64,000 bases of DNA from Hoeflea sp. (GTDB taxonomy: Bacteria > Pseudomonadota > Alphaproteobacteria > Rhizobiales > Rhizobiaceae): the NCBI RefSeq assembly GCF_040216675.1, contig NZ_JAVJOR010000005.1, one strand, 5' to 3'. Shown one piece after another: positions 21,748 through 46,989 of the stretch. The notes beneath the pieces are model-generated. The model was not told where the DNA came from, searched no databases, and worked only from the letters and a program-made list of their open reading frames with translations. Numbering within the stretch: the stretch's first letter is position 1; every line of letters begins with the position of its first letter. The translations under genes were made by a program, and so were the position numbers.

Positions 21748-22012
21748 GAATGGCCGATGTGGGTCGTAAGCCGCTATCGGCAGATACGCATTCAACTGCA
21801 GCTATTTCGGATCAGTTTTGGAAGCGGACGGAAGCTGCAGGCCGCGCAACGGAAACGTGTCTGCTTTGCGCCCCCATACTGGTCGTACGCCGCCATAGAA
21901 TGCAGTCCTGAAAGTGGTCGTCCGCTGCGGCGCGCGTAAAAGTCCGCCAAACGGAACGAAAAGGCCGTTCATGCTAACGAGATGAAGGTGCACAGGTGCG
22001 CATATTCCGACA
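21748..22012 (+). repeat. Cluster A of degenerate intergenic repeat units
   Basis: Units aatggccgatgtgggtcgtaagccg (21749) and gtgtctgctttgcgcccccatactggtcgt (21857); 21857-21917 is collinear with 26054-26114. Confidence 0.65.
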
Positions 22013-22192
22013 CCCGGAGCCCTCGTTTAAGCTTACTCAAGAGGTCAAACGCATCACTCAGCCTATATCCGATAGACCACTCACCGAGAGCACTGAGATA
22101 GTATTGCATAAATAGAGAAGATTCGACTCTGAAACTGATGTAATTAGTGTATGATCACTATCACCGATATTGATAAAAATCCGGAGTTGATC

Positions 22193-25100
22193 ATGCAACA
22201 ACTCTTACAAATTTTCCTCGGCGCCTCCGCGTTGTTCCTGCTTTTCAAATTCTCCCTTGTCCCGCGCTCAAAGAGACGTACCGAAAGCGCGACGTCCTTG
22301 GGGAAGCGCCCAGGTGCGATTGCCCTCCACGCAGCCCTCGGAACATTTGCCAACCTCGTTTTCTGGTTTGCGGTCTCGGCCGGGGCTACTCTGGGCGGTC
22401 TCGCTTTACTGGATCGGATCACCCCCCTGAATCTGTCAGAGGCTGAACAGGCGCTTAGTCAGGTCCGGGACTGGTCAGGCTGGCTGAACGCGGTAACGGG
22501 CTCGCTTGGCTTGTTCGGCGCGGGCGCTGCTGCGCTTGGGCTTCTTTGGTACAGTCACCGGCGCACGAGACGCATCGTCGAAGAAGAGATCGCACGCGAT
22601 ATGTCCGCTGCCATTGCAGAGTTGGAAACCTTAGCGACGAACGGCGAACTGCCGGAGGCGTCACCGACTGAGACCATGCTCCTGATCGAGGCCGAGTTCG
22701 ATAAGGTCCAGGCCGAGCTCGAAAAGACACAGAAAGATGGCGCCCCGGATACGCGCATCGCTGAAATTGCCAAGGAGGCGCAGAACCTTGCAGATCTGTA
22801 CACTCAGGTCGATATCCTCTCCCGTGCCGAAAAAAAAGTGCAGGAGAAGATTGCCGAGCGCGCGGACGGGATGCCACAACGGCGTGGCGTCGGCACGTTT
22901 TTTGTGTCGAACGGGTTCCATGACACATTATCCGGTGTCGGCAAGGTTTTGGCGGCACTTTGCGTGCTCGCGATCATTCCGGCCTCGCTGGTACTGACCG
23001 GGCCGCTGGCGCTCGACAGTCTGGATACTAAGCGCATCGCACTGGAGGAGGATGCCCGGGACTTTGAGTTTGTCGTTGCGCGAGAGGAGATTAATCAGGC
23101 GTGGGCTTCCGCGGTAGCGCCACAAGACGATACAGCGGAGGACACTGAGCCCACCGAAGAAGATTTACAGATTTCAGCTGAGCTGGCGCAAGTCTTCGAA
23201 GCCAATAGTGTTCCAAGCTCCGTCATCCGGATTACAGGTCGTACGGTCCCGCGAACCGCGGTCCGGGTATTCCAGCGCGAGCAGGCGCGCCAAGCAATCC
23301 TGTTGCGGGCAGCCGCCAGGTCGCCTTTAGTTTCGACCGCGCTGGGCGGATCTGCGCCGACCAATCCGCTCGCACAGAATACGGATGAGTTGCTTGGCCG
23401 GCTGTCCCGTCCAGATCTCGGTCCACAGACCAGTATCGGGCGCCAAGTGCAGGCAGATGCATTGGAATTGGCGCGGCGTAACCCCGGCCAATGGACCGAG
23501 ATCCGCAGGCGGTTCTCGGCATACCGGGCTTCGTTTGGTGTTGCGGCTCCCCCGCAGCGATTACAGGCGATCGTGGTCAACCAAGCGATTGGAAACATAG
23601 CCGGGAACGTAGGCACTTCTGGAGGGTTCTGGTCCGAGCAAGCGCGGAGCTTCGGCGCGAACGTCTCTGCCGAGGCCGCCGAGGCCTATACTCAGGCGGC
23701 CTCCCGTGCGTTTTTGACGGATTTCGCCCGGACAGGCGAATTGCCGGGGTCAGCGGTCCGGGCTGCTTCCAGCGCGGTAAGCGCACTACCCTCTAGTGAT
23801 GTGGCAGCCCTGCGCCGCGTTGCTGAGCTGCCCCCCAGCGCCGATGACCTAACGCGCCGGCTGACAGCGAACAGACCGACCTTGACAGCACAATCACTTA
23901 ATATTTCGGACGAAATGGCGGTACGCGCGGTCAACCGGGCTTCGGCTTCAGTGGGGCGGGGTATGGACGCCGCAGGTTCACTGGTCGAGTTCGCCGACCT
24001 TTTCCCCGGGCACGAGGGTCAAGAAATGGAAACCAAACGCGCCCGCGCTGCCCGCAAGGTCGGGCTCGACGGGGCTCCCCCATCGCGGGTGCGCGCGACG
24101 AGCGCCCAACTTCGCGAGTCCCGCGTCGCTTCGCGCCGGGCCGCTTCGTTCGTGCGCTTGCGTGGATTCTCGCGGATAGGTGGGGTGCTGATCGGCCGCG
24201 AGGCGGAAGAAGGCCCACCCTTGCGCGTGGACCATTTCGATTGGACCGTCGAGGGACGGACGTTCAACTATGAACTGGCAGTCGAGGGCGGCCCGATACA
24301 GAAGTTTGGTCCCTACGACGCCGCGATTGCCCATCTCGCTCTAGCCTATGCAGCAGATGGCCGGCCAACGACGGTCACAATGGTCACGGCACCTCCAGTG
24401 CCCGAGCTGCGAATCCTGATCCATCCCGCTTTAGTTGATACGGGCCTTGGTTGCCGCGCCCGTCGGCTGGACCAGTTCGCGGACGAAGCCGCGGCGCGGG
24501 TTGAAGTCCTTTCCCGGGTGCGTGCGATAGAAACACTTAGTGCCGAGGGGGAGGTCGCACTCTATAACTTGACGCAGGACCTGCAACTCCTGGCCATCGG
24601 ATCCAGCCCCGTCGGTCAGCAGGCTCTGGAGAGCTACGGCATCTCGGAATTTGTTGACCACGCGCGGCAGAGACTCGGATCCTTTCGGCAAGGAGATGCC
24701 GCCCAGTTCAGGCTGAGCGACAAAGCTACCCCGTTGGTGATCGCGGACAAACCTGCCTTTTTCCATAGCGGGACGGTCGAGCTAATGGAGCAATGTACAG
24801 ACGCCGACAAACTGGACGCCTATAGTGCCTGCATTCAGGAGAGGGCGACTGCCAAAGCGGGCGAGATCGTTCGCAGTGGGGCGCATTGGTTTGCGCCTCC
24901 TGTGGAGTATCAGATCTGGTCAGGCGTCCGTGAACGCGAATTCCAGGCAGATGCTGGGCTCGACTTTCTATCGGGCCGTAGCGAAAGTGCTCTCGGTCCG
25001 CTGCGGTTCATGGTCCAACTAGCGATCTCCAGCCCCGCCCATTACGCTGACATGTCACGTGAGTGGTATGAAGAGGACAATGAGGCGCGCGATAGCTTCA

Positions 25101-25648
25101 CGGACCCGGACCCTTGGGAGTTCCCCGAAACGGGTGTGATAACCGGCCACGAGATCATTGGGATTCTGGATAACTCGGAAGAGCATGCGGATATCTATGG
25201 GGACATGGTTTCATTCACGCGGCTGCAAAGGATGTTCCGGATGGCTTTGGACGGAGCTATGTCGGAGTCCTTCCCTGTCGATGAACTCCCCGCAATCGCT
25301 GATGCGACGTTCTCGGCTGTGAACTCCGAGGCGCCGACAAAACGTTGGAACACCTTTGGCGGAGGACACATCGAAGCTAGCCTACGCGACTTGCTCTCCG
25401 GAGTACCAAAAACACCCGCTGTCCAGGCCTGCCTCTCGCTTGCCCAGCGCGATGATGCGGCGGAGATCCCGGATGACGAATGGAACGCAATTTGTGCACC
25501 ATCGGCTCTGAATGCAAGCCTGACTCCTGATGATGCGAAGCGTAGCAACTATATTGCAGATCTGCGGGCCCTGCGGCGGGAGTTAGACCTCCAGCGGGAT
25601 GACCGTCTCGAAAAGGTCTACAGCGCGTCTGGCTGCCCAAAACCTTGA
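22193..25648 (+). CDS. Large orphan membrane-anchored protein (~1151 aa)
   Basis: Long ORF (track start 22151; GGAG RBS favours ATG 22193); about four N-terminal hydrophobic helices, coiled coil, large soluble region; no recognisable catalytic motif. Confidence 0.7.
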   Translation: MQQLLQIFLGASALFLLFKFSLVPRSKRRTESATSLGKRPGAIALHAALGTFANLVFWFAVSAGATLGGLALLDRITPLNLSEAEQALSQVRDWSGWLNAVTGSLGLFGAGAAALGLLWYSHRRTRRIVEEEIARDMSAAIAELETLATNGELPEASPTETMLLIEAEFDKVQAELEKTQKDGAPDTRIAEIAKEAQNLADLYTQVDILSRAEKKVQEKIAERADGMPQRRGVGTFFVSNGFHDTLSGVGKVLAALCVLAIIPASLVLTGPLALDSLDTKRIALEEDARDFEFVVAREEINQAWASAVAPQDDTAEDTEPTEEDLQISAELAQVFEANSVPSSVIRITGRTVPRTAVRVFQREQARQAILLRAAARSPLVSTALGGSAPTNPLAQNTDELLGRLSRPDLGPQTSIGRQVQADALELARRNPGQWTEIRRRFSAYRASFGVAAPPQRLQAIVVNQAIGNIAGNVGTSGGFWSEQARSFGANVSAEAAEAYTQAASRAFLTDFARTGELPGSAVRAASSAVSALPSSDVAALRRVAELPPSADDLTRRLTANRPTLTAQSLNISDEMAVRAVNRASASVGRGMDAAGSLVEFADLFPGHEGQEMETKRARAARKVGLDGAPPSRVRATSAQLRESRVASRRAASFVRLRGFSRIGGVLIGREAEEGPPLRVDHFDWTVEGRTFNYELAVEGGPIQKFGPYDAAIAHLALAYAADGRPTTVTMVTAPPVPELRILIHPALVDTGLGCRARRLDQFADEAAARVEVLSRVRAIETLSAEGEVALYNLTQDLQLLAIGSSPVGQQALESYGISEFVDHARQRLGSFRQGDAAQFRLSDKATPLVIADKPAFFHSGTVELMEQCTDADKLDAYSACIQERATAKAGEIVRSGAHWFAPPVEYQIWSGVREREFQADAGLDFLSGRSESALGPLRFMVQLAISSPAHYADMSREWYEEDNEARDSFTDPDPWEFPETGVITGHEIIGILDNSEEHADIYGDMVSFTRLQRMFRMALDGAMSESFPVDELPAIADATFSAVNSEAPTKRWNTFGGGHIEASLRDLLSGVPKTPAVQACLSLAQRDDAAEIPDDEWNAICAPSALNASLTPDDAKRSNYIADLRALRRELDLQRDDRLEKVYSASGCPKP

Positions 25649-26053
25649 TCATACACGTCGCCTCGACTGGCGGTGCAAGTGTATCAGCGCGAGCGCGCAC
25701 GATCTAATGAAAATATTGAAAGTCGAGGGTATCTATCCGCTTGCACTCAAGGCTAGAGATAATGCTGCTAAGAAGCCCCGGCTTTCATCCAAAAATACTA
25801 TGTCAAGCGGCTGCGTACATCGCTTGGACACTCAGCCAACTTCAGTACAAGGATCGGCACGCCCGGGCGTTGGCAAAATATGCTATATGAATCCCCTAAA
25901 TCAATCCGTCGTAGAGGAAGAACGTCGTCGCATGGTTGACTTGTCTAAGCGGGAAGCCATCCAAATGAGGATGATCTCGTTGAATGCACGTATTGGAAAC
26001 TAATTGGCGCAGCGAAGCCGGCGAAACGGCCGGATTCGCACATCGCTAATGGA

Positions 26054-26118
26054 GTGTCCGCTAAGCGCCCCCAAGTCGGGCGTTGAGCGGTCTGACGTCG
26101 CATCCTAAAAGTGGACAC
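26054..26118 (+). repeat. Cluster B repeat with imperfect terminal inverted repeat
   Basis: gtgtccgct (26054-26062) ... agtggacac (26110-26118); collinear with 21857-21917. Confidence 0.7.
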
Positions 26119-26254
26119 TGCTAATGAAGGCGCAAAAGGTCAATGTTTCGGAAAGTTAAAAGGTTCGGCGTGCGGGTTGATCTTGTAAAAAGGACGGGAA
26201 GCGAACATCGGGCGATATGACGGTCGTCAAACCGCGGGGCAGGTTTTTCAGAGT

Positions 26255-27352
26255 TCAATCGTCGCGGTGTCGGCCAGCGTTTCCTTCACAGAATTCACAA
26301 CCTACTAGGTAGCTGTGATCAGGAACGCCCCCAATCTGGCCCTCGTTGCAGAATTCGCAGACCTCCATGAGGTCAGACGATTCTAGACATTGGACGCAAA
26401 CGTAGAGGTCATTGTGTTCCACGCCAGCGTGGTACCCAAGGCATTGCGGACAGTTTATTTCGATTAGATCGAAATAGTTGTCGTATGTCGACGCTTCCCC
26501 TGTGTCTAAGGCTTCACGCAAAAAGTCTTCATCGACCGGAGTTTCGCAGTGGGGGCATTCGCTGGGCGGGCCTTCATAGGAATTGCATTTGATCTCTCCG
26601 CCGCAGGCGCCGTCTAAGCAATTAAAGGCTATCTCCGATCCGCTGTACGAGCAAACCACGCACGATCCTTGAGAGATGGCTCCATTAGGCGCAGCCAGCC
26701 GGACAGAGTCGAACTTGCAGCTTGGGCAGGAGGTGGTACGGTCGCCCTCGTCACGGTGCTTTTGCAGAACGTCGGCCTTGGAGTTGAACTTGGCCTCTAG
26801 GAATGCGCGATGGCGATCCATTTGGCGACCGACGATCTGAATCTCACGCTTGAACCCGTCAAATTCCTGCCAACTTTCGAGTAGCACTCTCAGCGACAGC
26901 CAGCCTGCGCACTGTTCCGCAACTATTTGGGCTGCGGCCTGAGGATCGTCCGCCCGGTCGTCCGAATGAACAAAGTGGACCATCTTGTTGCGGTGCTGGG
27001 CAATCTTTAAAAAAACGTCTCGCGAGTGCTGAGGAACGGAAATTCCCGCTATCTTGCGCAATCTTTCGAGTGTCTGCTCCGGAGTGACCGTCTTCGCATC
27101 TCCTCTGAAGAACGCGGCCTTGTCAGCCTGGTCGGGCTTGTCTAACAGGAGAGACCAGTGTTCTCTCATTAGACGAGCCTTCAAAAACAGTTCGATGGCA
27201 ATGGCGAAGTGAACCGTCGAAAACTTCGCTGATTGTGTGTGCTCCGCAATCGCTTTCTCAACGAACTCAAACGCACTCGTAGCGAGAGATTTGAATAGCT
27301 CATCCTCGGACAGCACCTGAGCTTGCCCCTTGCTTGCTGCTGCCATGGTCAT
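26255..27352 (-). CDS. HEPN-domain protein with multiple C-terminal CxxC zinc ribbons
   Basis: HFAIAIELFLKARL helix and RNKMVH (Rx4H) motif; CPSC, CVVC, CPHC, CPQC, CVQC, CEFC x2. Confidence 0.7.
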   Translation of the reverse strand: MTMAAASKGQAQVLSEDELFKSLATSAFEFVEKAIAEHTQSAKFSTVHFAIAIELFLKARLMREHWSLLLDKPDQADKAAFFRGDAKTVTPEQTLERLRKIAGISVPQHSRDVFLKIAQHRNKMVHFVHSDDRADDPQAAAQIVAEQCAGWLSLRVLLESWQEFDGFKREIQIVGRQMDRHRAFLEAKFNSKADVLQKHRDEGDRTTSCPSCKFDSVRLAAPNGAISQGSCVVCSYSGSEIAFNCLDGACGGEIKCNSYEGPPSECPHCETPVDEDFLREALDTGEASTYDNYFDLIEINCPQCLGYHAGVEHNDLYVCVQCLESSDLMEVCEFCNEGQIGGVPDHSYLVGCEFCEGNAGRHRDD

Positions 27353-27768
27353 TGTCCCACTTCGTTATCACTACCGCCGACTAGCGCCTCGTAGGTGGCC
27401 AAGTATCTCGCCTCCCAGTTCGAGCCCCATACCGATAATGTCGCTTCGTGCTGGTCTTCCCCTTTTAAAGCGTCGTGCCACGGCGACGCCGCAGCAATAA
27501 ATACCGGATGATTAAAGTCGTCGAACTGATCAGCCGTTATGTCAATGATAACTTCACCGTCCGAAAGCCAGACATGGGAAGCATCACCATGTCGACCGCA
27601 GATGTAACGGTACGTGCCGAACCCATTTTCTGCGAGATGATGCGCAAGAAGAATAGAAGCATCACCGCATGCACCACTGGGAAAGTTCTGAAGCGACAAC
27701 CCATCGTCACAGCGGTTCTTTTCGAGCCTTGCTCGGAATTCTGCCACGATTGTTTCTAGCTTAGCCAT
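27349..27768 (-). CDS. Small protein with putative Cys-His-Asp triad (transglutaminase/papain-like)
   Basis: FPSGACGDASILL, SHVWL, IIDITADQF; start moved to MAKLE (27768) because the upstream part of the ORF crosses repeat cluster C; stop overlaps the HEPN start. Confidence 0.55.
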   Translation of the reverse strand: MAKLETIVAEFRARLEKNRCDDGLSLQNFPSGACGDASILLAHHLAENGFGTYRYICGRHGDASHVWLSDGEVIIDITADQFDDFNHPVFIAAASPWHDALKGEDQHEATLSVWGSNWEARYLATYEALVGGSDNEVGQ

Positions 27769-27901
27769 GATAGGGATAACGAATGATCGACTTGCTCTTT
27801 GGGAGCAAGAGAAACCTTCTTGTGGGGAGTAGCCTAAATACCAAATCAGGCGTTCAAGGACGACTTTGCGCTCGAAGCTGCCGTATTTTTCTTGAGGTGC
27901 A

Positions 27902-27931
27902 AAGGTCGGCTTTGGGTCCGAAGCGCCAGCT
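27902..27931 (+). repeat. Cluster C degenerate repeat unit
   Basis: aaggtcggctttgggtccgaagcg, 16/25 identical to the unit at 21749 (shared TGGGTC..AAGC core). Confidence 0.45.
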
Positions 27932-28008
27932 TCCAAAACCTGACCGGACGCCTTGGCGGAGCCCATTAGGGAAATCGGTGTGTGCTTGACCCATAAGCGT
28001 TGGTGCCT

Positions 28009-30012
28009 TTACGCCCGCCACACCACGCTCTGTTCGACAATATCGCCGATGCTCCAGTGCCGCGCGCGCAGCAGCGCAAGCTCTTCGTCTGTAAAGGCGT
28101 CGCTGCGAATAGCGAGGCATAGCAAGTGCGATGGGCGTGTTACCGCGACGTAGTGCTGTTTTAGGCTCTTGCGCAATTCGGGCTTGTTGGCCGTCAGCCC
28201 TGACTCCGCGCCCGTCAGCCAACACTTGATCCGCTTAATATGCGATCCATTGAAATGGGTGTCGAAGACGAGCGTTGCGAGATGTGTCTCGCCTTTGACC
28301 GAATGGATCGAGCCGACCTTGATCCGAACCGCTGGCTCCGCAACAGGATAAGAAAAGACGTTGTCCGTCCTCGCGATGGCACCGTCGACAATGCGCTCGT
28401 CTTCCCACGCCAGGAATTCGTCGGCGCTTTCGGCGTGTACACCAGCACACAAAACGGTTGCGATGTCGGTGATCGGCTTCTTCCACGTCTGCCATGCTGC
28501 GGGGCCGGTTGGCAGTTCGCCTTCAGCCAGCTTCCAGCATAGGGCATGGAAGCGCCGGCCCGTCGCCGGATCATGTTCGAGAAGGCGGACAAGCTGGCGA
28601 TAACGGTTGGCGAAATTCGGATGCCGGACGGCGGGATTGAGCACCGTCGACAGACTCAGCAGCGCGTCGGCGGCTTTCTGGACGATCGGTCGAAGATCGC
28701 CGTTTGCACTGGCCTCAAAAATACCGCGCCTGAGACAGCCGATGAGCGTGGCGGGCCGTCCCTCGATACGGGCGAGCTGGTGATCATAGCCGGACCAGTA
28801 GTGAGCTACGCAATTTGGCGCGTCGGGTCGGCTGGTGTCACGATGGATCGCTCCCACCGCCGCAAATACCCCTGTCGCGCGCTCCGCCGGACTGAACCTC
28901 GCTGTTAGAAGTTTGGCAAATGCTGGGAGCACCGACATTGGCTGACGGGTGTCGAACAGCAGGATCGCAGCCTGCTTGCCGTGCTCCTCTGGGGGATGCT
29001 GGCGCAGGCCGATCAGCCCTGGCGGCGTCAGCGCCAGCGGATCGGCCAGTGTCGCGATCTGACTGCCGAAGCGGTGGCTGTTAGCCACTGGGATCGCAAT
29101 CGTAGGGTCCGGGAAAAGGTCGCTGTTCGCGCCGCTCAGGTCAGTTTCAGACGCACGGCCATAGATCGCCTGGTTCATGTCGCCGAACCGCTGGCGGACC
29201 ACCGGCTCATCTCCTTCGATGAACAGGCGGCGGAGCAGCTGGGACTGAATTTCACTATTGTCCTGGACCTCGTCGAGGAACAGCATCGGAAAACGCTTTC
29301 GAACAGCGCCCCTCAGATCAGGGTTTTGATCGAGCGCCTGTCCGGCCCAAATCATCATGTCGTCGTGACAGAAGAACCCTTCCTCGGTCGTCGTTCGGCA
29401 TGCGGCTATGAACGCTTGGTACGTTGGTGTCTGCTTGCCGAGCGTGCCATTGCCCCAGCGAATGGCGCCAAGATCATATCCGGCGTCCTGGATACGCAGG
29501 AGATCTTCACCACGTTTGTTCTCTTTCACCCTGGAGCGCTGAGCTTGCGTCAACTTGTGCAATCGTCGGCGAAGACAGATGTCGTCGTCGATCGCGACGA
29601 ACTCGATTCCTTGCGATCGGAGCCAAGGCAACGCGACGAACTGGTTCACAAACCCATGGATCGTACCGATAAAGTGCGGGTAAGAGAGGATAGAGCGTCC
29701 CGTCGGGTTGGTGCCGAGGCGGTTCTCGATCTCAAGCCGCGCAACATTGGTATGCGACAGGACACAGATACCTGCGCTCGGAGACGTCCAGCGCTTCGCC
29801 AGTATCGCGAGCTTTGCAATAAGCAGTGTTGTCTTGCCGCTGCCTGGGCAGGCATCGACGTCGATCGACGCGTTCGAGCGAAGCACGTCGAGCCGCGCGT
29901 CATTGTCGTCCGGCCCGTGAAATGCCTGGACCGGCAAACCGAGGCTCGCGCAGGCGGCACCGATCTCCTCGTCGGTGACAGGCTGACCTAGAAGCTGGGC
30001 GATGCCACTCAC
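28009..30012 (-). CDS. gajB: UvrD-like helicase, Gabija GajB
   Basis: ACPGSGKT, LFLDEVQD, FGDMNQAIY, SHRF, SIHSVKGETH; ATGA overlap with the upstream OLD nuclease. Confidence 0.8.
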   Translation of the reverse strand: MSGIAQLLGQPVTDEEIGAACASLGLPVQAFHGPDDNDARLDVLRSNASIDVDACPGSGKTTLLIAKLAILAKRWTSPSAGICVLSHTNVARLEIENRLGTNPTGRSILSYPHFIGTIHGFVNQFVALPWLRSQGIEFVAIDDDICLRRRLHKLTQAQRSRVKENKRGEDLLRIQDAGYDLGAIRWGNGTLGKQTPTYQAFIAACRTTTEEGFFCHDDMMIWAGQALDQNPDLRGAVRKRFPMLFLDEVQDNSEIQSQLLRRLFIEGDEPVVRQRFGDMNQAIYGRASETDLSGANSDLFPDPTIAIPVANSHRFGSQIATLADPLALTPPGLIGLRQHPPEEHGKQAAILLFDTRQPMSVLPAFAKLLTARFSPAERATGVFAAVGAIHRDTSRPDAPNCVAHYWSGYDHQLARIEGRPATLIGCLRRGIFEASANGDLRPIVQKAADALLSLSTVLNPAVRHPNFANRYRQLVRLLEHDPATGRRFHALCWKLAEGELPTGPAAWQTWKKPITDIATVLCAGVHAESADEFLAWEDERIVDGAIARTDNVFSYPVAEPAVRIKVGSIHSVKGETHLATLVFDTHFNGSHIKRIKCWLTGAESGLTANKPELRKSLKQHYVAVTRPSHLLCLAIRSDAFTDEELALLRARHWSIGDIVEQSVVWRA

Positions 30013-31982: not shown

Positions 31983-32175
31983 GTATCCCTCCGGGAGCGC
32001 TCACCGGCGTGATATCGCTCGAATCTACCATAGCGCGATTTTGGTGGCAGTGCATCCTCGGAGGCCAGCTGTCTTCAGCGAGATTCATCCGCTTTGTCGA
32101 GAGAAGCTCTGGAACGAGAGCGGGTCGCGACCCAGATGCCCCGGATACTCGAAGGCACGGATTCGGCGGATGAAC

Positions 32176-37418: not shown

Positions 37419-37466
37419 TGTCTTACCTCCACAAGATCTAGATTGGGCGACGAAGCCGTCGCGGCG

Positions 37467-38066: not shown

Positions 38067-38089
38067 GGAGTTATCTCCTAAGTTTGGGT

Positions 38090-38863: not shown

Positions 38864-38968
38864 GCCTGCGACCTCGATGGTTCTGGAAGCAACCCGAATG
38901 CTCCGGGCTCGTTTTTACAACAAGTATGGCCGGCACGATCCGAGACTATCCAGCATCCTGGATGCGGG

Positions 38969-39952: not shown

Positions 39953-40271
39953 GGTCGCGCCGCCAGATTCTGCTTTCTCTAATTTAACGATAACAGAGAC
40001 AGCAGATTTGTTGTAGCTGCTCCGACAGCGAGATTGATGCTGATGTTTCAATCCTGCCGGTACTTGTCCGCAGATCGTCAGACTGGAACCGCTTTGACAG
40101 TCGGCAGATAAAATGAACGCAAATTGCCGGTGCCTTGTTTTCGAAGTGAAGTATCGGGTCAAAGCGGTGTGCAGACGGCCAACATTCAGGCTCCGCTTGC
40201 TATGAAACCTTTTGTGCGATCAAAAAGCGCTGTCGGAGGAGCATCGATCATTCATGGGTGGCGGCTTGAAC

Positions 40272-40604
40272 ATGGCAAGAATACTGGGCGCGATCACCGC
40301 CATTGCGGCGTGGACCAGCTTCGCCATAGCGTTGCTTATTTCCGGCAGCGGTGTCTGGACTATGAAAAGCCCGACCATGATCGTCAGCTCTTTGGTTGGT
40401 GCTGTTTTTCTCCTTGTTGGTCTGGTACTGCACAAGATAGGCCATGCCTATCGACCCCTTTACCTGGAACTCGACGGCTCTCCTGAAGTAATGCGCCTGG
40501 GGCGATGGCTTTACATTGGATGCGCCATCCTCCTTTTCGCACTCGTGTTCATCCTCCTTGGCGTCTTGTTCCGCCTGTCGGAGGGGTACGCGGTTTTCGG
40601 ATAG
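40272..40604 (+). CDS. Small three-TM membrane protein
   Basis: Three hydrophobic segments; start uncertain (40254 or 40272). Confidence 0.5.
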   Translation: MARILGAITAIAAWTSFAIALLISGSGVWTMKSPTMIVSSLVGAVFLLVGLVLHKIGHAYRPLYLELDGSPEVMRLGRWLYIGCAILLFALVFILLGVLFRLSEGYAVFG

Positions 40605-40686
40605 CACTGTTCAGGGTGACCGTTGCGACTTGCCTTCGAACTCCTTCGCAATCCGACAAACAGCAGCAATCGTCCTATGCGCTCCC

Positions 40687-41685
40687 TTATGAATTCCGCA
40701 TGATCACGAAATCAGTCGAAGAGCGGGTTTCTGGATGGGCGGGAAGATCGGTCAGCATCATGGTCGCGCCCGGATGCAGGTTGCGGGCAATCTGGCCGTA
40801 GACATCCGGCGGGATCACCAGCCGTGCCGTCACTGCGATTTCGCGCTGCACATCCACCGCCGCCTCATCGCCGGTTCCAAGGCCGATCGCTATCCAGTCA
40901 TAGACATGGGTTGCCGGATTCATCCCCTTGAGCAGGTATACGTGCGTGCCAAGCGGCAGACGCCGGTGCTCTATGCCGATACCGGCACTGATAAATTCCT
41001 TGCCGTTCTTGAGCGCGATCAACCGGCGGTCGGCGCTGCTGACGATTATGGCAAAGGCTTCGTCCCGTTCACCATCCTTGTCCCGAGGCAGGTTCTTGCC
41101 GGCAACGTTGCCCGTCATGGTTTCCACCGCCTGAAGGTCTGAGTTGGCCAGCACCAGCCCGGCATGACTGAGACTGCCGATTCCCGAGCGTGAATTGGTG
41201 ACGATGACCGGGGTGCCGTTGTGGGTCACACCGAAGAGCAGATCGGCAAAGGCTTTGGGAAGATGCACGCAGCCATGGGAACTGGGATAGCCCGGCAGCC
41301 CTCCGGCATGCAACGCGCAGCCGCCGAAGAAGAACTGACTGTCGGGCATGGCTGCGTTGTTGTAGGCTTTGGAATGATGCAGTTTTTCCTTTCGAAGCAC
41401 TGAAAACACGCCGGTCGGTGTCTCATAGCCCTTTCGCCCCGTCGACACCGTCGACACCCCGATTCGGATGCCGTTTCGGTAGACAAAGGCAAGCTGGTCA
41501 GCCAGCGACACCAGCACCGCCACCGGGCCGCCCGGTGCCCGCTCCGGATACCAGGACCACTCCCCTGGCTTGAGATCTGTGACGGGCTTCTCGGTTTGTG
41601 CGGAGCTGCCGCCATTGGCAGCGATGAGTGCTGCCACACCGCCGGTGGCAAGAAAGCCTCTGCGGGTTATCTTTCCCTTTTTCAT
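40687..41685 (-). CDS. Tat-exported L,D-transpeptidase (YkuD family)
   Basis: Twin-arginine TRRGFL; HAGGLPGYPSSHGCVHL catalytic motif; GGAG RBS before MKKGK. Confidence 0.9.
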   Translation of the reverse strand: MKKGKITRRGFLATGGVAALIAANGGSSAQTEKPVTDLKPGEWSWYPERAPGGPVAVLVSLADQLAFVYRNGIRIGVSTVSTGRKGYETPTGVFSVLRKEKLHHSKAYNNAAMPDSQFFFGGCALHAGGLPGYPSSHGCVHLPKAFADLLFGVTHNGTPVIVTNSRSGIGSLSHAGLVLANSDLQAVETMTGNVAGKNLPRDKDGERDEAFAIIVSSADRRLIALKNGKEFISAGIGIEHRRLPLGTHVYLLKGMNPATHVYDWIAIGLGTGDEAAVDVQREIAVTARLVIPPDVYGQIARNLHPGATMMLTDLPAHPETRSSTDFVIMRNS

Positions 41686-42068
41686 GCTCCTGCGCTCCTG
41701 TCCTTTAAAGTGACCGGCCCCCACCACGCCACTTCGAACGGCCTAGCCTGCCCACAGAATAATACTCATTTCCAGCTCAGAGCGAACCCTCGTTACTCAG
41801 AGATGTGATCGCCGTTGTGCTTCTGTCAGAATAGCAGATGTGGCTCCATCGTGCACGTTGCGGCCCGTTGATGGGCAACCGGTGTGCTATCCGGCCCCTG
41901 TTTGGCCACGCCGTGATCGAGCACACGGTCAGCAGTTTGAATTCGGCCTGTCTCTCATCCATACTCAGTTTCACAAAGGCCTCTCGAAGAAGCTGCCAGG
42001 ACGTGTTTTGAACGATTTGGCTGTCTCCCGCAGGGCTAGGCCACGAGTGGAGCGGGGAACCGTGTGCA

Positions 42069-44510
42069 ATGGAATCTGAGACGGGGAACCGAGCAAAATC
42101 ATGGGTTTCAGCGGCACTGATGATCCTGGCGTTGATGCTGCCTTTGCTCGCCGGTGCACCCACCGAAAGCCTTGCTCAAGAGAGCCCGGAAACAGACAGC
42201 AATTTGGAAGTCGTCGATCCTGCTGATCAATGGAACGAGACTGCGGCACGTGCACTGGAGGCTCTGCGCAGCGGGAAAGCCTCCAGCTCCGCCTTTGAAG
42301 TGTTGCGGCAGAAACTGGCTGACGAGCGTGACCAGGCCTTGGCTATTGCCGAAAGCGGCAGCATTTTATCCAAATCGGTTCAGGCACAGATTGACGCGCT
42401 CGGTGCTGCACCGGACGGTGACGGCAGCGAACGCGCGGACATCGCTGCCCGCCGTGCCGAGCTCAATGCATCCCTTGCGGTTGCCGATGCACCTGTAATT
42501 GCGGCCCGGGAGGCCTTTAACCGCGCAAATGTTCTGATCAGCGAAATTGATAGCGTCATCAGGGCGCGTGAGAGCGTCGAGCTTACCACTCTGCTGCCCA
42601 CGCCGATCAACCCATTTAACTGGGCCGGCGCCTTTGCTGAAATGCAGGACTATTTGGGACGCGTGCTGGTCGAATTCGAAAAAAGCATTGCCAACCCGTC
42701 CAAGGCAACCCCTCTCAAAATCCGCCTGATCGCTGCCGGTCTCCTGCTGGTGCTGTCACTTGCGGTGGTGTTCATCATCCTGCCCGTCACTCTCCGCTCG
42801 ATGAATGCCAGGGCCAGACGTGTCGACGCCAAGACAACACATTCAGGTTGGGGATTGCTGGCGGTGCTTGCGCGGCTGGTGCTTGCTTCGCTGGCAGGCA
42901 TCCTCGCCTATTCGGCCTTCAGCACACTGGACATTTCCTCCACCGCCGCGCGCTCACTGATCCGGGTGGTGCCGGCCATCGGGGCATTTCTGGTCGTCAG
43001 CTACTGGCTTGGCTACGTCATCTTTGCTCCGGATGCGCCCGAGCGCCGGCTTATGAAACTGCCGGATCATCAGGCCCGTACGGGCTTCTGGATCGTCATG
43101 GGCGTCGGATTGGTTCTCGTCGTCGAACTCGCCATTGAAGCATCGGAGAAGGACATGACCTTTCTTCCGGGCACTCATGCCGTGGCCAGTGTGTTTGCGC
43201 TGCTGCCAGGTGCGTTCCTGCTGTGGGTATTCGGCTCGATGGCACAACGTTCCACCAAGGCGCAGACTGAGAGCGACAGCATCGAGGACCCAAGCTACAC
43301 AGCAGCGCTGGTGCAGTTGCTGGCGCGGACACTGCAGGTGTTGGCCATAGCCATTGTGGTGCTGACGCTCTCCGGCTTTACCGCGCTGGCGCGGTTCGTG
43401 CTTTCGGGCTGTGCGCTGTCGCTGGGCGTCATCGGCATTCTGCTGGCCACCGACAAACTGATTGTTTCCGCGCTGGGACTGGCCGCGGGCGTATCCGGAC
43501 GGGAACATGACGAAACTCGCCAGAGTTTCCTGTCCATTGCCATCGGTCTGACGATGAGCATCGCCGCGTTGCCGGTGATCGCACTCATCTGGGGTGCCCG
43601 TCCGGCCGACATTTCCGAGTTTTGGCGTTTGATGACCGAAGGAGTGGTTGTCGGCGGAACCCGATTGTCAGCCACCGTCGTGCTTGTCTTCGCCTTCACA
43701 CTTCTTGCCGGACTGGTGGCGTCGCGCTGGCTGCAACGGTTCCTCGGATCCGCGGTGTTGCCGCGCACCCATCTCGACAGCGGCGCGCAATCCGCATTGC
43801 GGACCGGGATTGGCTATCTCGGAGCCACTGTGTCGTTGATGCTGGCCGTTGGCTTTGCCGGTATCGATCTGTCCAGCCTTGCCATCGTCTTCGGCGCGCT
43901 CTCCGTCGGGCTCGGCTTCGGCCTTCAGGCCGTCGTCTCGAACTTCATCTGCGGCATCATTTTGCTGATAGAACGTCCTTTCAAGGAAGGCGACTGGATC
44001 GAGGTTTCAGGCTACAGCGGCATCGTCCGCAAGATCTCTGTACGCTTTACCCGCCTGGAAACCTTCGATCGCGACGATGTCATCGTGCCCAATACGGATC
44101 TGATCACCGGAACGGTAAAGAACATGACACTGAGCACGATCACCGGGCGCGTGATCGTCCCTGTCGGCATCGCCTATGGAAGCGACATAGAGAAGGCGGA
44201 AAGTATATTCGTCGACATCATGTCGGCACATCCGGATGTCCTGCGAGAACCGGCGCCTGCCGTCTTGTTCAGGGGGTTGGGCGACAGCGCTCTCGATTTC
44301 GAGCTTCGCTGCTTCATTTCCAATGTCGGGCTGGGGCTGACTGTCCGGTCCGATCTGCTCGCCGGCGTCTACCGGGAACTGGACAAAGCCGGCATCGAGA
44401 TACCATTCCCGCAGCGCGATCTGCACATCAGGACATCCTCTGGTCCAACGGATCTGTCAGCGCAGAATCCCTCTGAAGCGGAGCCGACAACCTCTCCGCA
44501 ACCAGGGTGA
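42069..44510 (+). CDS. Large MscS-family mechanosensitive channel with periplasmic coiled-coil (DUF3772-like)
   Basis: GALSVGLGFGLQAVVSNFICG, LIERPFKEGDWI, IEIPFPQRDLHI. Confidence 0.9.
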   Translation: MESETGNRAKSWVSAALMILALMLPLLAGAPTESLAQESPETDSNLEVVDPADQWNETAARALEALRSGKASSSAFEVLRQKLADERDQALAIAESGSILSKSVQAQIDALGAAPDGDGSERADIAARRAELNASLAVADAPVIAAREAFNRANVLISEIDSVIRARESVELTTLLPTPINPFNWAGAFAEMQDYLGRVLVEFEKSIANPSKATPLKIRLIAAGLLLVLSLAVVFIILPVTLRSMNARARRVDAKTTHSGWGLLAVLARLVLASLAGILAYSAFSTLDISSTAARSLIRVVPAIGAFLVVSYWLGYVIFAPDAPERRLMKLPDHQARTGFWIVMGVGLVLVVELAIEASEKDMTFLPGTHAVASVFALLPGAFLLWVFGSMAQRSTKAQTESDSIEDPSYTAALVQLLARTLQVLAIAIVVLTLSGFTALARFVLSGCALSLGVIGILLATDKLIVSALGLAAGVSGREHDETRQSFLSIAIGLTMSIAALPVIALIWGARPADISEFWRLMTEGVVVGGTRLSATVVLVFAFTLLAGLVASRWLQRFLGSAVLPRTHLDSGAQSALRTGIGYLGATVSLMLAVGFAGIDLSSLAIVFGALSVGLGFGLQAVVSNFICGIILLIERPFKEGDWIEVSGYSGIVRKISVRFTRLETFDRDDVIVPNTDLITGTVKNMTLSTITGRVIVPVGIAYGSDIEKAESIFVDIMSAHPDVLREPAPAVLFRGLGDSALDFELRCFISNVGLGLTVRSDLLAGVYRELDKAGIEIPFPQRDLHIRTSSGPTDLSAQNPSEAEPTTSPQPG

Positions 44511-44578
44511 TTTCGTGCTCAACTCATCCCCATCAGGCCGGACCAATGGACGTGCTCAGGTGGCGCGGTGGCCCTTGA

Positions 44579-45100
44579 TTGTTTCTGCTGATTGCCGGTC
44601 TCCTGGCGCTTCACTTGGCGATTGCCACGAACGCGAGCCTCTTGAGGCGGCGTGCCGCAATCGCAATTGCCTGTCTGGCGGCATTGCCTCTCACATTAGG
44701 GCCAGTCGTTCCGATTGCCCATTTCATTCTTGAGGCCATACGCAGGCCACTTCTTTGGAGTGCGCAGACTTTCGCCGCTCTGCTTGTGCTTGCACTCGTG
44801 TCGCATCTGGCCATTGCAATGGAAGACGGGTACCAGTTGGTATCTTGGGTTCCCTTCTTTGGTAACCAGTTTAATCAAACCTTATTGCTGAAATCGCCAA
44901 TCTGGCTGTCAGACGATGAGCTAGGCCAGCCAACGCCAGGGCTGTGGGACGAACCAACCCATATCGGGAATTGGTTGGCAGCAGCAGCGGAGTGCGTCCT
45001 TCTCGCCTTTTCAGCATGGTCCATCCAGGAATTGATTGTGGTTTATTGCGGCTATCCGGTTCTCAATGCGGCCTTGGCACACGCGACGCTCAGCCGATAG
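44579..45100 (+). CDS. Hypothetical membrane protein
   Basis: Several hydrophobic segments; start uncertain. Confidence 0.45.
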   Translation: MFLLIAGLLALHLAIATNASLLRRRAAIAIACLAALPLTLGPVVPIAHFILEAIRRPLLWSAQTFAALLVLALVSHLAIAMEDGYQLVSWVPFFGNQFNQTLLLKSPIWLSDDELGQPTPGLWDEPTHIGNWLAAAAECVLLAFSAWSIQELIVVYCGYPVLNAALAHATLSR

Positions 45101-45203
45101 TGTTTCTGTTGCCAGACCGCTGCACTCTATGGGGTACCCGACCTCGGACTAAACAACATCTGAAACTTCGGACATCCGCGAACCTTTGCCGCAAAGAGAA
45201 TGG

Positions 45204-45310
45204 AAGTCTGCAATCGGCCTGACGCGACGTCGACAGTCAAAGGCGAATGTCTGTTTAACCGGCTTCGTTCCCACAAGCTGCCAGTCCGCTCCCGGCCCCA
45301 TTCCAGACGT
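45204..45310 (+). repeat. Cluster E of degenerate repeat units, just downstream of the second tyrosine recombinase
   Basis: aagctgccagtccgctcccggcccca (45275-45300) followed by ttccagacgt; matches cluster D. Confidence 0.75.
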
Positions 45311-45366
45311 TAAGTAAGATCAGCTTTAGCTGGCCGCACGTGCCCTAAGGGGATCATTCCTGCCCT

Positions 45367-46989
45367 TCACCTGACCGAATTCCGCTCATAGATACCCTTA
45401 GCCCGCTCATAATCGGGATCAGCTGAATTAATCTCTCTGCGCTCGAAAGCCAGGTAGAGCTCGAGCTCGCTGCGGTTAGAGAGTGCCCGCCGGCAAACCT
45501 CATCCAAGGCCTCCTCGCGATCACTGTCTTGCATTAAGGCATAGTGCTTGTGGGTCGTCTCGGTCGGCGTGTGACCGAGATTGAGCTTAAGAGCGACTTC
45601 TTCGAAGCCCTCCATTTTCCCTCGTTTGGACAGAAACGGATGCAAGACCTTTCGGAAGCCATGTGACGATATCCCTTCCTCCGAGATGCCGGCAGCCTGG
45701 GCGGCATCCTTGATGACCCGCTGGATCGGAGCATCTGATCTCCAGCATTCAGGTGGTTCGGTTTCTGCCGAACGGTAGCCGAGGCCAATCGCGTTCGGTT
45801 GCATGTATCGATCCGGGAGAAAAAACGGCGCATCCGCGACAAATCCATTCTCCTCGCGCCACCTGGCCCAGTCCCTGATCGCATCGAGAAGCCCGGAGCC
45901 AAGATCAAGGCAGTAGGTCCGGATGTGCTTGCTGAACTTGGTTCTCACCTCACGCGGATCCTGATTGATCCATCTGGTGTGCATGTTCACATGCTTGCCG
46001 CGGAGTGTGATCAGGGCGCTCACGCGCATGCCTGTGGTGATGAACATGGCGATAATGGCACGGTTCCGAAGTTCGATTGGGTTCGACTTGGGCATGGCCG
46101 AGAAGATACATAGCGCCTGGTCAAAGGTAAGTCGTGTCTCTTTGACACTGCTCGATTCTGCTGACCGCTCCTTGTGGGAGAGTCTGAAGTACCCGGGGAA
46201 GTCGGGATCCATAACGATCCCCGGCCGACGCTGAAACCATGTGAAGAACGTACCGCAGCGATCAAGAGTGTGTCCGAGAGTTGACCAGCTTAGCCCCATG
46301 TCACCTTCCAGTGCGCGTCTTCTGCGCAGCTCCTCCTTGAAGTTGCGGGCATCCGCGATCCTGGTCTGCTCGAACGGCTTGTGACCAAGGAAAGCGGTCA
46401 TCCGGGCAAGAGCACGCAGGTGCTCATCAACCGTTCTCGGGTCGAATTCCCGGTTGCTTTCAAGGAAGACACGGTAGTCGTAAAGCCACCGAAGATTGCC
46501 GTTGTGGGTTTCAGGCGGAATCGAAGCCCCGTTTCTCCATGTTTCCCCAGAGACACCATCATCACTTTCGTCGGATGAGTGTCCGGGGATGTTGAGGGCA
46601 GAGGCAAAGATTTCGGGCACTTCGTCAGGTGGTATGTCAGCTTGTAGCATGTTGTGGCAATCCGTGCACATGCCTGTCACCGAGAGGCAGTCGGTGTCAG
46701 CCACAGAAGTTTTGATGGTACCGGTGATCACAGGCTTGAAGCCCAGGCAGACAGGACAGTGAATGCGGCCATCCTTATGTGGGCGGCCATCGGGCCAGCG
46801 GATCCCAGTGATGAACCGGCGCACCTTGTATCCCGCAAAGAGCTGCGGCCGTTTGTTGTCAACCGGCTCCAGCCCGGCACGTATCCAGTTCAGGACCGTG
46901 CTGTCGCTTACACTGTACATCTCCTTGAGATCGTCACGGGAATAGACCCAGTGCCTGCGTGCTTTGGTGGGATCGTATTTGCGCGGCAT
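45367..46989 (-). CDS. Tyrosine recombinase with N-terminal excisionase-like HTH and Cys4 zinc-binding domain
   Basis: HTH YSRDDLKEMYSVSDSTVLNWIRAGL; CPVC..CTDC; catalytic TGMRVSAL, SHGFRK, LGH, HYA. Confidence 0.8.
   Translation of the reverse strand: MPRKYDPTKARRHWVYSRDDLKEMYSVSDSTVLNWIRAGLEPVDNKRPQLFAGYKVRRFITGIRWPDGRPHKDGRIHCPVCLGFKPVITGTIKTSVADTDCLSVTGMCTDCHNMLQADIPPDEVPEIFASALNIPGHSSDESDDGVSGETWRNGASIPPETHNGNLRWLYDYRVFLESNREFDPRTVDEHLRALARMTAFLGHKPFEQTRIADARNFKEELRRRRALEGDMGLSWSTLGHTLDRCGTFFTWFQRRPGIVMDPDFPGYFRLSHKERSAESSSVKETRLTFDQALCIFSAMPKSNPIELRNRAIIAMFITTGMRVSALITLRGKHVNMHTRWINQDPREVRTKFSKHIRTYCLDLGSGLLDAIRDWARWREENGFVADAPFFLPDRYMQPNAIGLGYRSAETEPPECWRSDAPIQRVIKDAAQAAGISEEGISSHGFRKVLHPFLSKRGKMEGFEEVALKLNLGHTPTETTHKHYALMQDSDREEALDEVCRRALSNRSELELYLAFERREINSADPDYERAKGIYERNSVR

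Follow-up and report, generated by a model that had tools for sequence, protein, structure and literature searches.

The window analysed here, 64,000 nt of DNA from a marine Hoeflea strain, contains a tRNA-Ser genomic island that spans about 15861-48181. The tRNA-Ser(GCT) gene (48185-48274, minus strand) was identified by ARAGORN and Rfam. A 17-bp direct repeat from its 3' end, AAATGGCGGAGAGGAAG, is located at 48182-48198 and again at 15844-15860, and the window holds no further copies. At the island end distal to the tRNA, a P4-like integrase is encoded (16074-17273, plus strand; Pfam Arm-DNA-bind_3, Phage_int_M, and Phage_integrase). Another repeat, ATGTGGGGCTGGATGTGGGGCT, is present in two copies (15991-16012 and 48110-48131).

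The cargo includes modules of 4-13 kb that are multi-gene, with genes on both strands. Module 1 (21868-26068) encodes a 1165-aa membrane protein (22151-25648, plus strand), for which our family search gave no match. Module 2 (26068-32231) carries a HEC-08/DUF3644 gene with its partner (26255-27966) and the Gabija genes gajB-gajA (28009-31982), all on the minus strand. PADLOC recovered GajA (1e-188), GajB (6e-167), and HEC-08 (6e-73), the latter corresponding to gene 26255-27352. Module 3 (M; 32248-45300) contains genes for two alpha/beta hydrolases, SH3, LprI-like, Rce1-like, AraC, YkuD, and MscS/DUF3772 proteins and a 173-aa membrane ORF. To the right of M, a 540-aa tyrosine recombinase is encoded on the minus strand (rec540; 45367-46989; Pfam Phage_integrase, 7.6e-11). 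It consists of a Cys-rich N-terminal extension, a SAM-like domain, and a catalytic domain, in which the His-x-x-Arg and Gly-His...Tyr motifs can be read by eye as HGFR and LGHT...KHY. The two small genes upstream of it (46992-47965, minus strand; analysed with Pfam) are found in the same order in all homologous loci. The product of 47543-47965 matches AlpA/HTH_17, and that of 46992-47546 has no Pfam match of its own, with counterparts of ~170-184 aa at homologous loci showing weak HTH_17/AlpA hits. The GajA, GajB, and recombinase genes had already been called in a preliminary description of this DNA and were confirmed here.

That description had also proposed a family of co-oriented repeats in five clusters, A to E, as module boundaries. 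We found that D (32175-32271) and E (45243-45313) are two copies of one ~72-nt element, and that a ~32-nt unit from it recurs in weak form at A (21855-21888) and B (26053-26086). A unit consists of a 5' half, a C-run (GCGCCCCCA or GGCCCCA), and a 3' half that is GGTCGTAC-like (TnCnGGTCGTWC). The 5' half is either GTGTCCGCT-like or a conserved 26-nt core, AAGCTGCCAGTCCGCTCCCGG, which is nearly invariant from genus to genus. Unit A (plus strand) reads GTGTCTGCTTT-GCGCCCCCA-TACTGGTCGTAC, with the C-run at 21868-21876, and is preceded by a degenerate core-like stretch, GGAAGCTGCAGGCCGCGCAACGG, at 21830-21852. Unit B (plus strand) reads GTGTCCGCTAA-GCGCCCCCA-AGTCGGGCGTTG, with the C-run at 26065-26073. 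Clear dyad symmetry between the halves was not found in either of these two units. Element D (plus strand; nhmmer E = 7e-13) represents a long form: a 5' arm and the core AAGCTGCCAGTCCCCTCCCGGCCCCA (32206-32231) come first, and the spacer AACAAGCCGGACGGGAAT separates them from a second site, GCGCCCCCA (32250-32258), to which the 3' half TTCCGGTCGTAC is attached. Element E (plus strand; nhmmer E = 1e-16) is the short, canonical form, with the core at 45275-45300 between the 5' arm GAATGTCTGTTT... and the 3' half TTCCAGACGTTAAG. Deleting the 27 nt between the two C-runs converts the long form into the short one. In several copies the C-run is bracketed by a small dyad, CCGG-N7-CCGG, an arrangement that may resemble a recombinase core whose overlap region is 7 bp long.

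The match between D and E had been noted before and is well supported (25/26 bases, or 29/30 with one gap; z = 14.6 against shuffles; BLAST E = 3e-7), as is that between A and D (20/22 bases, z = 6.3). The alleged collinearity of A and B over 61 bp did not stand, since their pairwise alignment is not significant (z = 2.5, below the shuffle maximum). We then scanned the window with a unit profile for which we used solely external copies that are not orthologous to those of the window. The five best hits, all on the plus strand, were E (45279-45311, 17.3 bits), the two sites of D (D2, 32245-32270, 16.1 bits; D1, 32210-32234, 7.1 bits), A (21860-21888, 9.1 bits), and B (26063-26085, 6.5 bits). 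With a top score of 10.2 bits in 30 shuffled windows, D and E are significant, and the membership of A and B is no more than suggestive by sequence. In the flanks (1-15800 and 48300-64000), no ranked hit exceeded 5.4 bits, which is below the shuffle maximum, and all family copies in the window lie on the plus strand within the tRNA-Ser island. Co-orientation extends to all seven adjacent copy pairs within about 15 kb in the window, AS60, L003, L009, and L040 (7/7; (1/2)^7 = ~0.008). Cluster C (27902-27931) was rejected both as a family member and as a boundary. It reaches only 2.3 bits, on the minus strand and inside the N-terminal part of ORF 27349-27966, and no pair including it aligned above chance in the shuffle test. 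Moreover, it lies inside the block 26068-32231, in which the HEC-08 pair and Gabija travel together and which is continuous in X23-X27 and X33.

Comparison with other Hoeflea genomes and metagenome contigs revealed shared blocks (21868-32232, 26068-32231, about 22300-26069, and 32248-45300; 91-99.9% identity), each of which adjoins unrelated DNA in the other genomes, and all breakpoints are located in the C-run of a unit. Homology ends at 21868 in A, at 26068 and 26069 in B, where the edges from both sides meet within 1-2 nt, at 32231/32232 and 32248-32257 in the first and second C-run of D, and at 45300-45312 in E. Identity across the C-run falls from 86-98% to 25-37%. All six junctions lie in this one submotif. 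Several boundaries are those of metagenome contigs, read as coordinates plus 30-nt loose ends, and alignments tend to carry on through the best-conserved stretch of a unit, so that the coincidence looks sharper than it is by a few bases. The earlier expectation that alleles would gain or lose DNA exactly at the repeats was therefore borne out at A, B, D, and E.

A contig of 19376 nt (X33) is 99.9% identical to 21868-32232, beginning exactly at 21868 in unit A and ending at the first C-run of D, with unlike flanks of 1469 nt on the left and 7581 nt on the other side. A contig of 8765 nt shared by X23-X27 matches 26068-32231 (98.6%) and carries 2578 nt of unlike DNA on its left. Its junction at B, where GATGACCGCTTCGCGC is joined to CCCCCAAGTCGG, is a full unit with a different 5' half, GATGACCGCTTCGCGC. 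In X36 and X38, which come from two other studies, module 1 runs to 26069 and is followed by another 3' half, TCTATTCGTTCG.... The 5' and 3' halves of units are thus reassorted between genomes. Module 1 is found in X33 and X34 (99.9%) and in X36 and X38 (about 95%), and it is absent from X23-X27, which hold module 2. The isolate Hoeflea sp. AS60 contains exactly 32248-45300 at 91.5% identity with other neighbours, in the order unit, M, long element, PDC-S06 defence candidate, element, and hence follows the same array logic as the window. At the right end of M, homology stops at 45300 in AS60 and L018, at 45306 in X25, and at 45312 in X5, with four different continuations; M occurs at about 92% in X5, X23, X25, and X28 without the recombinase. 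The units at A and B share about 9-13 nt at most, too short for an assembler misjoin at k = 31. Identity of this length is also too short for efficient RecA recombination.

The position of the breakpoints in the C-runs and the reassortment of the halves suggest that the units are exchange points for modules and a candidate new kind of module-exchange site. Modules reassorted with joins in the same few bases point to a module-swapping site that has not been described. Judged from sequence comparison, we give an even chance to the reading that at least three multi-gene modules make up the island cargo as a mosaic, with precise, site-directed exchange at the co-oriented short sites where they join. 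A module would then open with a 3' half and close with a 5' half, and modules could be gained, lost, or recombined between strains, most likely by site-directed recombination or by insertion of circular modules at specific sites, the crossover lying within the 5-9-bp C-run. Circular modules and empty sites were not seen. The Gabija defence system is among the modules carried in different strain combinations. We infer that the exchange is enzyme-driven. Candidates are the adjacent rec540, the P4-like integrase, a host recombinase acting in trans, and an HUH-type enzyme. Beyond the island, the element is a low-copy, intergenic feature of many Hyphomicrobiales genera, and neither a recurrent gene neighbour nor a recurrent recombinase family was found beside it across genomes. 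A factor acting in trans is favoured, since single elements are widespread without a recurrent neighbouring gene.

This wide distribution is also what would be expected of ordinary dispersed intergenic repeats (REP, MITE, or the rhizobial mosaic kind) that happen to lie between operons without any dedicated system. The breakpoints would then reflect fragile or recombinogenic repeats, homologous or microhomology-mediated, or alignments running into the conserved part. The family indeed occurs on plasmids and chromosomes in unrelated, partly metabolic contexts, and the seawater metagenome X23 has at least four more copies on other contigs of similar depth. At the consensus level, one end of the 72-nt element is complementary to the other (70.8% of cells paired versus 27-44% when slid), a feature also of MITEs or REPs, and the start of its 5' arm, GAATGTCCGCTT, may be akin to the GTCCGC...GCGGAC palindromes common in alphaproteobacteria. 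Furthermore, Hoeflea alexandrii carries M (32346-44704) without units on either side, its edges being 98 and about 600 nt off the units, so M also exists outside the unit system. But copy number is low, with three copies on a 123-kb Hoeflea plasmid, nothing above 5.4 bits in the window outside the island, and no match to E at 80% or greater likeness in a same-species isolate run (X1), and a conserved hairpin is absent. Nor would dispersed repeats readily account for two-sided breakpoints within 1-2 nt despite only about 9 nt of identity at A and B, or for six junctions in one submotif with clean reassortment of halves. We regard this explanation as possible but rather doubtful.

Element E ends 54 bp from the rec540 stop codon, just past it, which invites an integron-analogous model in which rec540 would be a recombinase dedicated to the cassettes and the resident element an attI-type acceptor. 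The closest homologue (83%, L012/L013) is accompanied by an element in the same position and orientation, an 80% homologue (L010) retains a remnant there, M looks inserted between the 3' half of that element and the Gabija module, and the catalytic motifs are readable. However, homologues at 56-65% (L011, L014-L017) show neither a downstream element nor units in their BREX/restriction-modification cargo, and no rec540 lies within 10 kb of the AS60 and L018 arrays, which adjoin a serine-recombinase element and a different P4-like integrase. The element is also far commoner than the 72 rec540 homologues. Each of these lies at an island edge next to core genes, accompanied by an HTH_17/AlpA-type gene and a ~180-aa ORF, and two directly adjoin tRNA-Ser genes, as would fit an island integrase. 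A AGCCCCACA motif 55-66 nt past the tRNA, in the window and L011 alike, also speaks against the model, and neither an IntI signature nor an IntI family hit was found for rec540. The position of the homologues at island edges weakens the argument that tRNA integration does not require this recombinase, and the predicted co-occurrence of units with its homologues failed, islands in other genera being devoid of unit arrays. We consider a dedicated role of rec540 unlikely. Of the proposal that the repeats are recombination sites or scars for module swapping, their part as exchange points is supported, and an integron-type system with rec540 as its enzyme is not.

On a further reading, the modules would be non-autonomous and transposon-like, and a unit would arise where two of them abut, from the right end of the first, a C-rich target that has been duplicated, and the left end of the second. 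A target-specific transposase (DDE or HUH) acting in trans would insert them side by side. This would predict the same pattern as site-specific recombination, with a 3' half at the start, a 5' half at the end, and a short common C-run, and strict co-orientation is consistent with rolling-circle or HUH systems. Yet no transposase gene was found in or beside the modules of the window, the module ends at A and B are not mutual inverted repeats, and single complete elements are kept across genera at sites without any module. We think this origin improbable.

Several known systems invite comparison. REP/BIME, RIME, Sm-repeats, and MITEs are likewise short, mosaic intergenic elements with minimal, short, and long forms, and they share with our element the spread over Hyphomicrobiales and a consensus-level terminal inverted repeat. 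The element differs from them, presumably so in the case of RIME and Sm-repeats, by its low copy number, the lack of a stable hairpin, and its near-invariant 26-nt core, for which a full-text search gave no match. CIME-type arrays and tycheposon-like islands also combine non-autonomous modules, direct repeats between them, a tRNA-linked island, and strain-specific subsets, but the separating repeats in the window are not copies of the island att (AAATGGCGGAGAGGAAG). As in pdif modules/IMEX, short sites bound modules without a recombinase inside, and a host enzyme in trans is plausible. However, pdif sites flank modules in inverted orientation, whereas the window units are directly oriented and without dif likeness (12-15/28 matches, which is background). 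Integrons (IntI, attI, attC) differ by their IntI-type integrase and attC sites: the window has no such integrase, and folding of the units revealed neither the attC-like hairpins suggested earlier nor covariation. Moreover, the modules of the window are 4-13 kb long and multi-gene, on both strands and presumably with their own promoters, and in many genomes single copies of the site are also found at a distance from any recombinase. In both systems, however, co-oriented short sites part mobile units, the array adjoins a tyrosine recombinase gene, the bulk of each site lies at the 3' end of a unit with the last ~13 nt belonging to the next, and defence genes are carried as cargo. The unit system is thus not an integron, but it is cassette-like in outcome.

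A 17-bp sequence from the 3' end of the tRNA-Ser(GCT) gene (48185-48274, minus strand), AAATGGCGGAGAGGAAG, occurs as a direct repeat at 15844-15860 and 48182-48198 and thereby delimits an island of ~32 kb (15861-48181) in the window, which has a G+C content of 57%. A P4-like integrase gene (16074-17273) is located at the island end far from the tRNA. At the tRNA-side end, the gene for a 540-aa tyrosine recombinase (rec540; 45367-46989, minus strand) is accompanied by two small genes, of which one matches AlpA/HTH_17 and the other has no Pfam hit of its own. ATGTGGGGCTGGATGTGGGGCT occurs close to both ends (15991-16012 and 48110-48131), and a tandem ATGTGGGGCT motif lies just inside each of them, positioned as arm-type integrase sites would be; one copy of its complement is found 66 nt past the tRNA-Ser gene of a locus carrying a rec540 homologue (L011). 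The left direct repeat is overlapped by the 3' end of a serine recombinase ORF (14460-15869), which probably lacks the N-terminal segment with the catalytic serine, since its alignment to a full-length relative starts only at about residue 49 of the latter. Further mobile or defence-type DNA is found left of the island (1-15800), with genes for an AAA/TPR protein (968-3217), a 1037-aa MmeI/Eco57I-type methyltransferase (7421-10534), and an ArdA-like antirestriction protein (13158-13805). Within the island, the protein encoded at 26255-27352, previously taken for a HEPN protein, is similar to DUF3644 and to HEC-08, a candidate system in PADLOC (E = 6e-73); no family hit was obtained for the 205-aa partner. 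The proteins encoded between clusters D and E group at ≥90% identity with proteins labelled as Hoeflea alexandrii, Hoeflea sp. AS60, and uncultured Hoeflea.

The preliminary description had proposed a family of co-oriented repeats in five intergenic clusters, A to E. In pairwise tests against shuffles, the pairs D/E (29/30, z = 14.6) and A/D (20/22, z = 6.3) were confirmed; A/B (z = 2.5) and all pairs including C were not. The divergence and gaps of its copies kept the family from being recovered by a repeat finder run over the whole window. When one genome per species was scanned, single copies of the D/E core were found in Hoeflea, Devosia, Xanthobacter, and Martelella. BLAST searches with the core matched 31 plasmids from Agrobacterium, Rhizobium, Mesorhizobium, Sinorhizobium, Martelella, Phyllobacterium, Beijerinckia, and Polymorphobacter, always in intergenic DNA and at one place per record, and A and B gave one weak plasmid match and none, respectively. 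The element was absent from the viral contigs scanned. A metagenome scan returned 35 stretches, 19 of which are family members in that their alignment goes past the core pattern itself (~11 distinct loci once duplicates are merged). The aligned copies define an element of ~72 nt, in which a 5' arm, (G)AATGTCYGCTT and ~20 further nt, is followed by the near-invariant core AAGCTGCCAGTCCGCTCCCGGCCCC and then by A-N3-4-GGTCGTTC. Its final ~32 nt make up a unit (GTCCGCT, 3-4 nt, G(C/S)CCCCA, 4 nt, GGTCGTWC) whose pattern also fits A (21855-21888), B (26053-26086), and the second part of D (whole element 32175-32271). We then scanned the window with a unit profile derived from outside copies only, none of them orthologous to those in the window. 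The five top matches were E (45243-45313), D2, A, D1, and B, in that order and all on the plus strand; E and D2 alone exceeded the best score of 30 shuffled windows. Cluster C (27902-27931) scored at noise level, and the part of the window outside the island gave only matches of ≤5.4 bits, under the shuffle maximum. The family is thus real, co-oriented and, in the window, confined to the island, as originally noticed. Cluster C does not belong to it, and on sequence alone the case for A and B is weak.

Pairs of co-oriented copies separated by 80 nt to 2.5 kb also occur at other loci (L009, 3969-4036 and 5337-5403; L040, 662-687 and 3213-3264; L003, 6344-6492). On a Sinorhizobium plasmid, such copies bracket one unknown gene; in a metagenome contig, they enclose the gene for an aspartyl-protease/PDZ protein and the larger part of a 192-aa ORF whose family is unknown. 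Immediately upstream of E, a stretch (45160-45233) containing GGAAGTCTGCAATCGGCC... is repeated in the metagenome X23, and its raised depth there (83-165 vs. ~39 beside it) suggests a second repeat unit in cluster E. An interpretation of D as the circle junction of the D-E block in its AS60 arrangement was dropped: D is simply a long-form copy, because the 52-nt 'long form' recurs at other X23/X27 loci with different flanks. A sigma-54 promoter on the reverse strand of D was likewise rejected on inspection, the spacing being one base off and the motif absent in E.

To compare the boundaries between strains, contigs from public sequencing runs were aligned on the window and related Hoeflea loci were fetched; for metagenome contigs, the evidence consists of coordinates and 30-nt loose ends. 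In both sources, pieces of the island were found in other combinations. A 19376-nt contig (X33/X34) corresponds to 21868-32232 with 14 differences and a 39-nt deletion, with 1469 nt of unlike DNA on one side and 7581 nt on the other. In A, 21868 corresponds to the G of GCGCCCCCA, and 32232 lies one base beyond the GGCCCCA of the D core. The 39 nt missing from the otherwise 99.9% identical X33 contig (25813-25851) are located downstream of the gene for a 1165-aa protein. In X23, X24, X26, and X27, an 8765-nt contig matches 26068-32231 at 98.6% with 2578 nt of unlike DNA on the left, and nothing in these runs matched 16335-25672. Its junction, GATGACCGCTTCGCGC/CCCCCAAGTCGG (the slash marks the breakpoint), is a complete unit in which the 5' half is a different one. 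The region of the 1165-aa gene is present at ~95% in X36 and X38, from two further studies, and ends at 26069 within the GCGCC/CCCA of B; beyond it follows TCTATTCGTTCG..., a different 3' half that is also found in another X23 copy.

The D-E block (32248-45300) is found at 91.5% identity in the isolate assembly of AS60. There, its D side adjoins a DUF3489-DUF2924-serine recombinase element and a distant P4-like integrase, while its E side is followed by a long-form element, the defence candidate PDC-S06, and another co-oriented element. Across the C-runs, the short C-rich submotifs between the 5' and 3' halves of the unit, identity between AS60 and the window drops from 86-98% to 25-37%. The right end of the block stops at 45300 (AS60, L018), 45306 (X25), or 45312 (X5) with four different continuations, and the recombinase region had zero depth in all runs of this comparison. 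Altogether six junctions lie within a C-run, with B and D approached from both sides and a sharp fall of identity across them, although alignment extension through the conserved C-run may move apparent breakpoints by a few bases. The expectation that island alleles differ by gain or loss at the repeats was therefore borne out at A, B (both sides), D (two adjacent sites), and E, where the halves of the units reassort.

The same end of the DUF3489-DUF2924-large serine recombinase element lies at opposite sides of the D-E block at two loci (L018, 4362-4460; L019, 1-177), adjoining the E side in one metagenome and the D side in AS60. Both joins are at a half-unit (...CGCT/ATGCGCCC...). Since the same end joins half-units at both sides of the block, this element may target the units. 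The PDC-S06 candidate of AS60, between its two co-oriented elements (L019, 13484-16096), is apparently broken up into two ORFs, one of 158 aa and one of 709 aa.

In Hoeflea alexandrii, the D-E block (32346-44704) occurs without units and with slightly different ends, so it exists outside the system, too. Circles and empty sites were not observed. Contigs of X1, X2, X16, and X17 did not match E (X1, an isolate run of the same species, contained nothing at ≥80% likeness to it), and the island stretch from 16.3 to 35 kb was absent from X1, X2, X6, and X16; X1 is the only one of these runs labelled as a single organism, the rest being metagenomes or other organisms. The units could be a passive repeat family that forms merely a fragile or recombinogenic seam, an explanation we consider unlikely but worth keeping in mind. 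The units at A and B have only ~9-13 identical bases in common, which makes an assembler misjoin at k = 31 impossible at A/B. RecA-type homologous recombination would be inefficient over ~9-13 nt of identity. With roughly even confidence, we read the units as crossover or insertion sites of a precise recombination that shuffles multi-gene modules, and its putative catalyst would probably act in trans.

The preliminary description had proposed rec540 as a candidate for this role, arguing that it is not needed for tRNA integration. We identified 72 homologues of rec540. All nine loci examined show a constant order of a short HTH_17/AlpA-type gene, an ORF of ~180 aa, and rec540, usually preceded by an ORF of ~250 aa; in L011, the HTH_17/AlpA-type gene is the ~180-aa ORF itself. 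This gene group is placed where core genes meet variable cargo (BREX, restriction-modification, PLD, AAA_15). Two of the nine loci directly adjoin tRNA-Ser genes with other anticodons, and in one of them the AGCCCCACA motif, which has two copies there in the window, lies 66 nt past the tRNA. The tRNA-Ser adjacency and the shared motif fit a function of rec540 as island integrase, and the argument that it is dispensable for integration is weakened. E lies 54 bp past the rec540 stop codon; an element is found at the same distance in the closest homologue (83% identity), and an 80% homologue retains a remnant, but this arrangement is limited to the three closest homologues: at 56-65% identity, there is neither an element downstream nor a unit in the cargo, contrary to the expected co-occurrence. 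Overall, rec540 is improbable as the cassette recombinase.

Among 109 ORFs counted at 20 independent loci, all within 3.5 kb of the element, every Pfam family was limited to at most two loci and no neighbour was recurrent; Phage_integrase was not among recurrent families. The sole integrase seen beside an element is a 223-aa protein from Xanthobacter (L004). At this locus of Xanthobacter sp. V2C-4, the element (4603-4673) lies 94 bp past the stop of this tyrosine recombinase, which is unrelated to rec540, with a HerA/DUF87 ATPase on the other side; this geometry mirrors that of E and rec540.

Searches of Rfam at gathering and permissive thresholds matched the tRNA only and gave no hit for the element. 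RNAalifold found just three invariant pairs and no conserved secondary structure. The ends of the element are complementary at the consensus level only (GAATGTCYG...CRGACRTTC; 70.8% of cells paired vs. 27-44% when slid), and covariation in this terminal pairing did not exceed that of shuffles. As single-stranded DNA, six canonical short elements folded no better than shuffles (z = -1.1 to +1.0), and neither long-form D (z = -1.5 and -0.5) nor the stretch with the A unit (+0.6) was significant; B alone reached z = -2.5. An attC-like substrate, an imperfect palindrome that forms a hairpin as single strand, as envisaged initially, is therefore unsupported.

A full-text search for the core sequence gave no result, and literature searches covering rhizobial mosaic elements and alphaproteobacterial integron-like systems yielded no match; no description of the element or of repeat-bounded modules of this type was found in these searches. 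We tentatively propose, with somewhat less than even confidence, that Hyphomicrobiales, most clearly Hoeflea, possess a previously undescribed, site-specific module-exchange system that uses a recombinase acting in trans, other than an integron integrase. Its site would comprise ~32 bp with the crossover in the C-run, often inside a 72-nt element with a near-invariant 26-nt core, and multi-gene modules, among them defence systems like Gabija, HEC-08, and PDC-S06, would be excised and inserted in co-oriented arrays. To our knowledge, the gain and loss of whole systems by defence islands is mostly unexplained beyond integrons, phage satellites, and transposons. The window offers a DNA site, short and searchable, where wild strains of this marine alphaproteobacterium have visibly exchanged Gabija and other modules. 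Should an enzyme act on the site, multi-gene modules would have a new cassette-type platform, accessory modules in Hyphomicrobiales genomes could be delimited with a practical marker, and a new recombination tool might be gained. If none does, a low-copy conserved intergenic element still marks the seams of island mosaics.

Integrons are defined by an IntI-type recombinase, whereas the top NCBIfam match of rec540, the XerA/'integron integrase' model, reached 56.8 bits against a cut-off of 220; rec540 reached none of the IntI models and has no sequence relative in the PDB. The cassettes of an integron array are short, lack promoters, usually contain a single gene, and share the orientation of attI next to intI; the modules of the island measure 4.2, 6.2, and 13 kb and have genes on both strands. 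The units also differ from the 28-bp dif-like site of pdif/Xer modules (XerC arm, 6-bp spacer, XerD arm): with the E. coli dif consensus as the only query, the A, B, D, and E regions matched at 12-15/28 positions (background mean 13, maximum 17). In CIME-type tandem att arrays, the internal repeats are the att site; here, the units are unrelated to the tRNA-Ser-derived 17-mer, which is confined to the two island ends. REP/RAYT-type repeats occur in tens to hundreds of copies per genome, with a stable palindromic hairpin and a RAYT gene; the element has three copies in a complete 123-kb Hoeflea plasmid and at least five in the AS60-like population of X23. Hallmarks of MITEs are terminal inverted repeats and a target-site duplication, and the element has a terminal inverted repeat at the consensus level. 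That the units are the abutting ends of transposon-like modules is, in our judgement, improbable. Exchange in a short overlap with reassortment of half-sites, as seen in the units, is what characterizes a generic site-specific recombination site. The Hoeflea system resembles integron cassettes and pdif modules in outcome, but differs from both in the features that define them.
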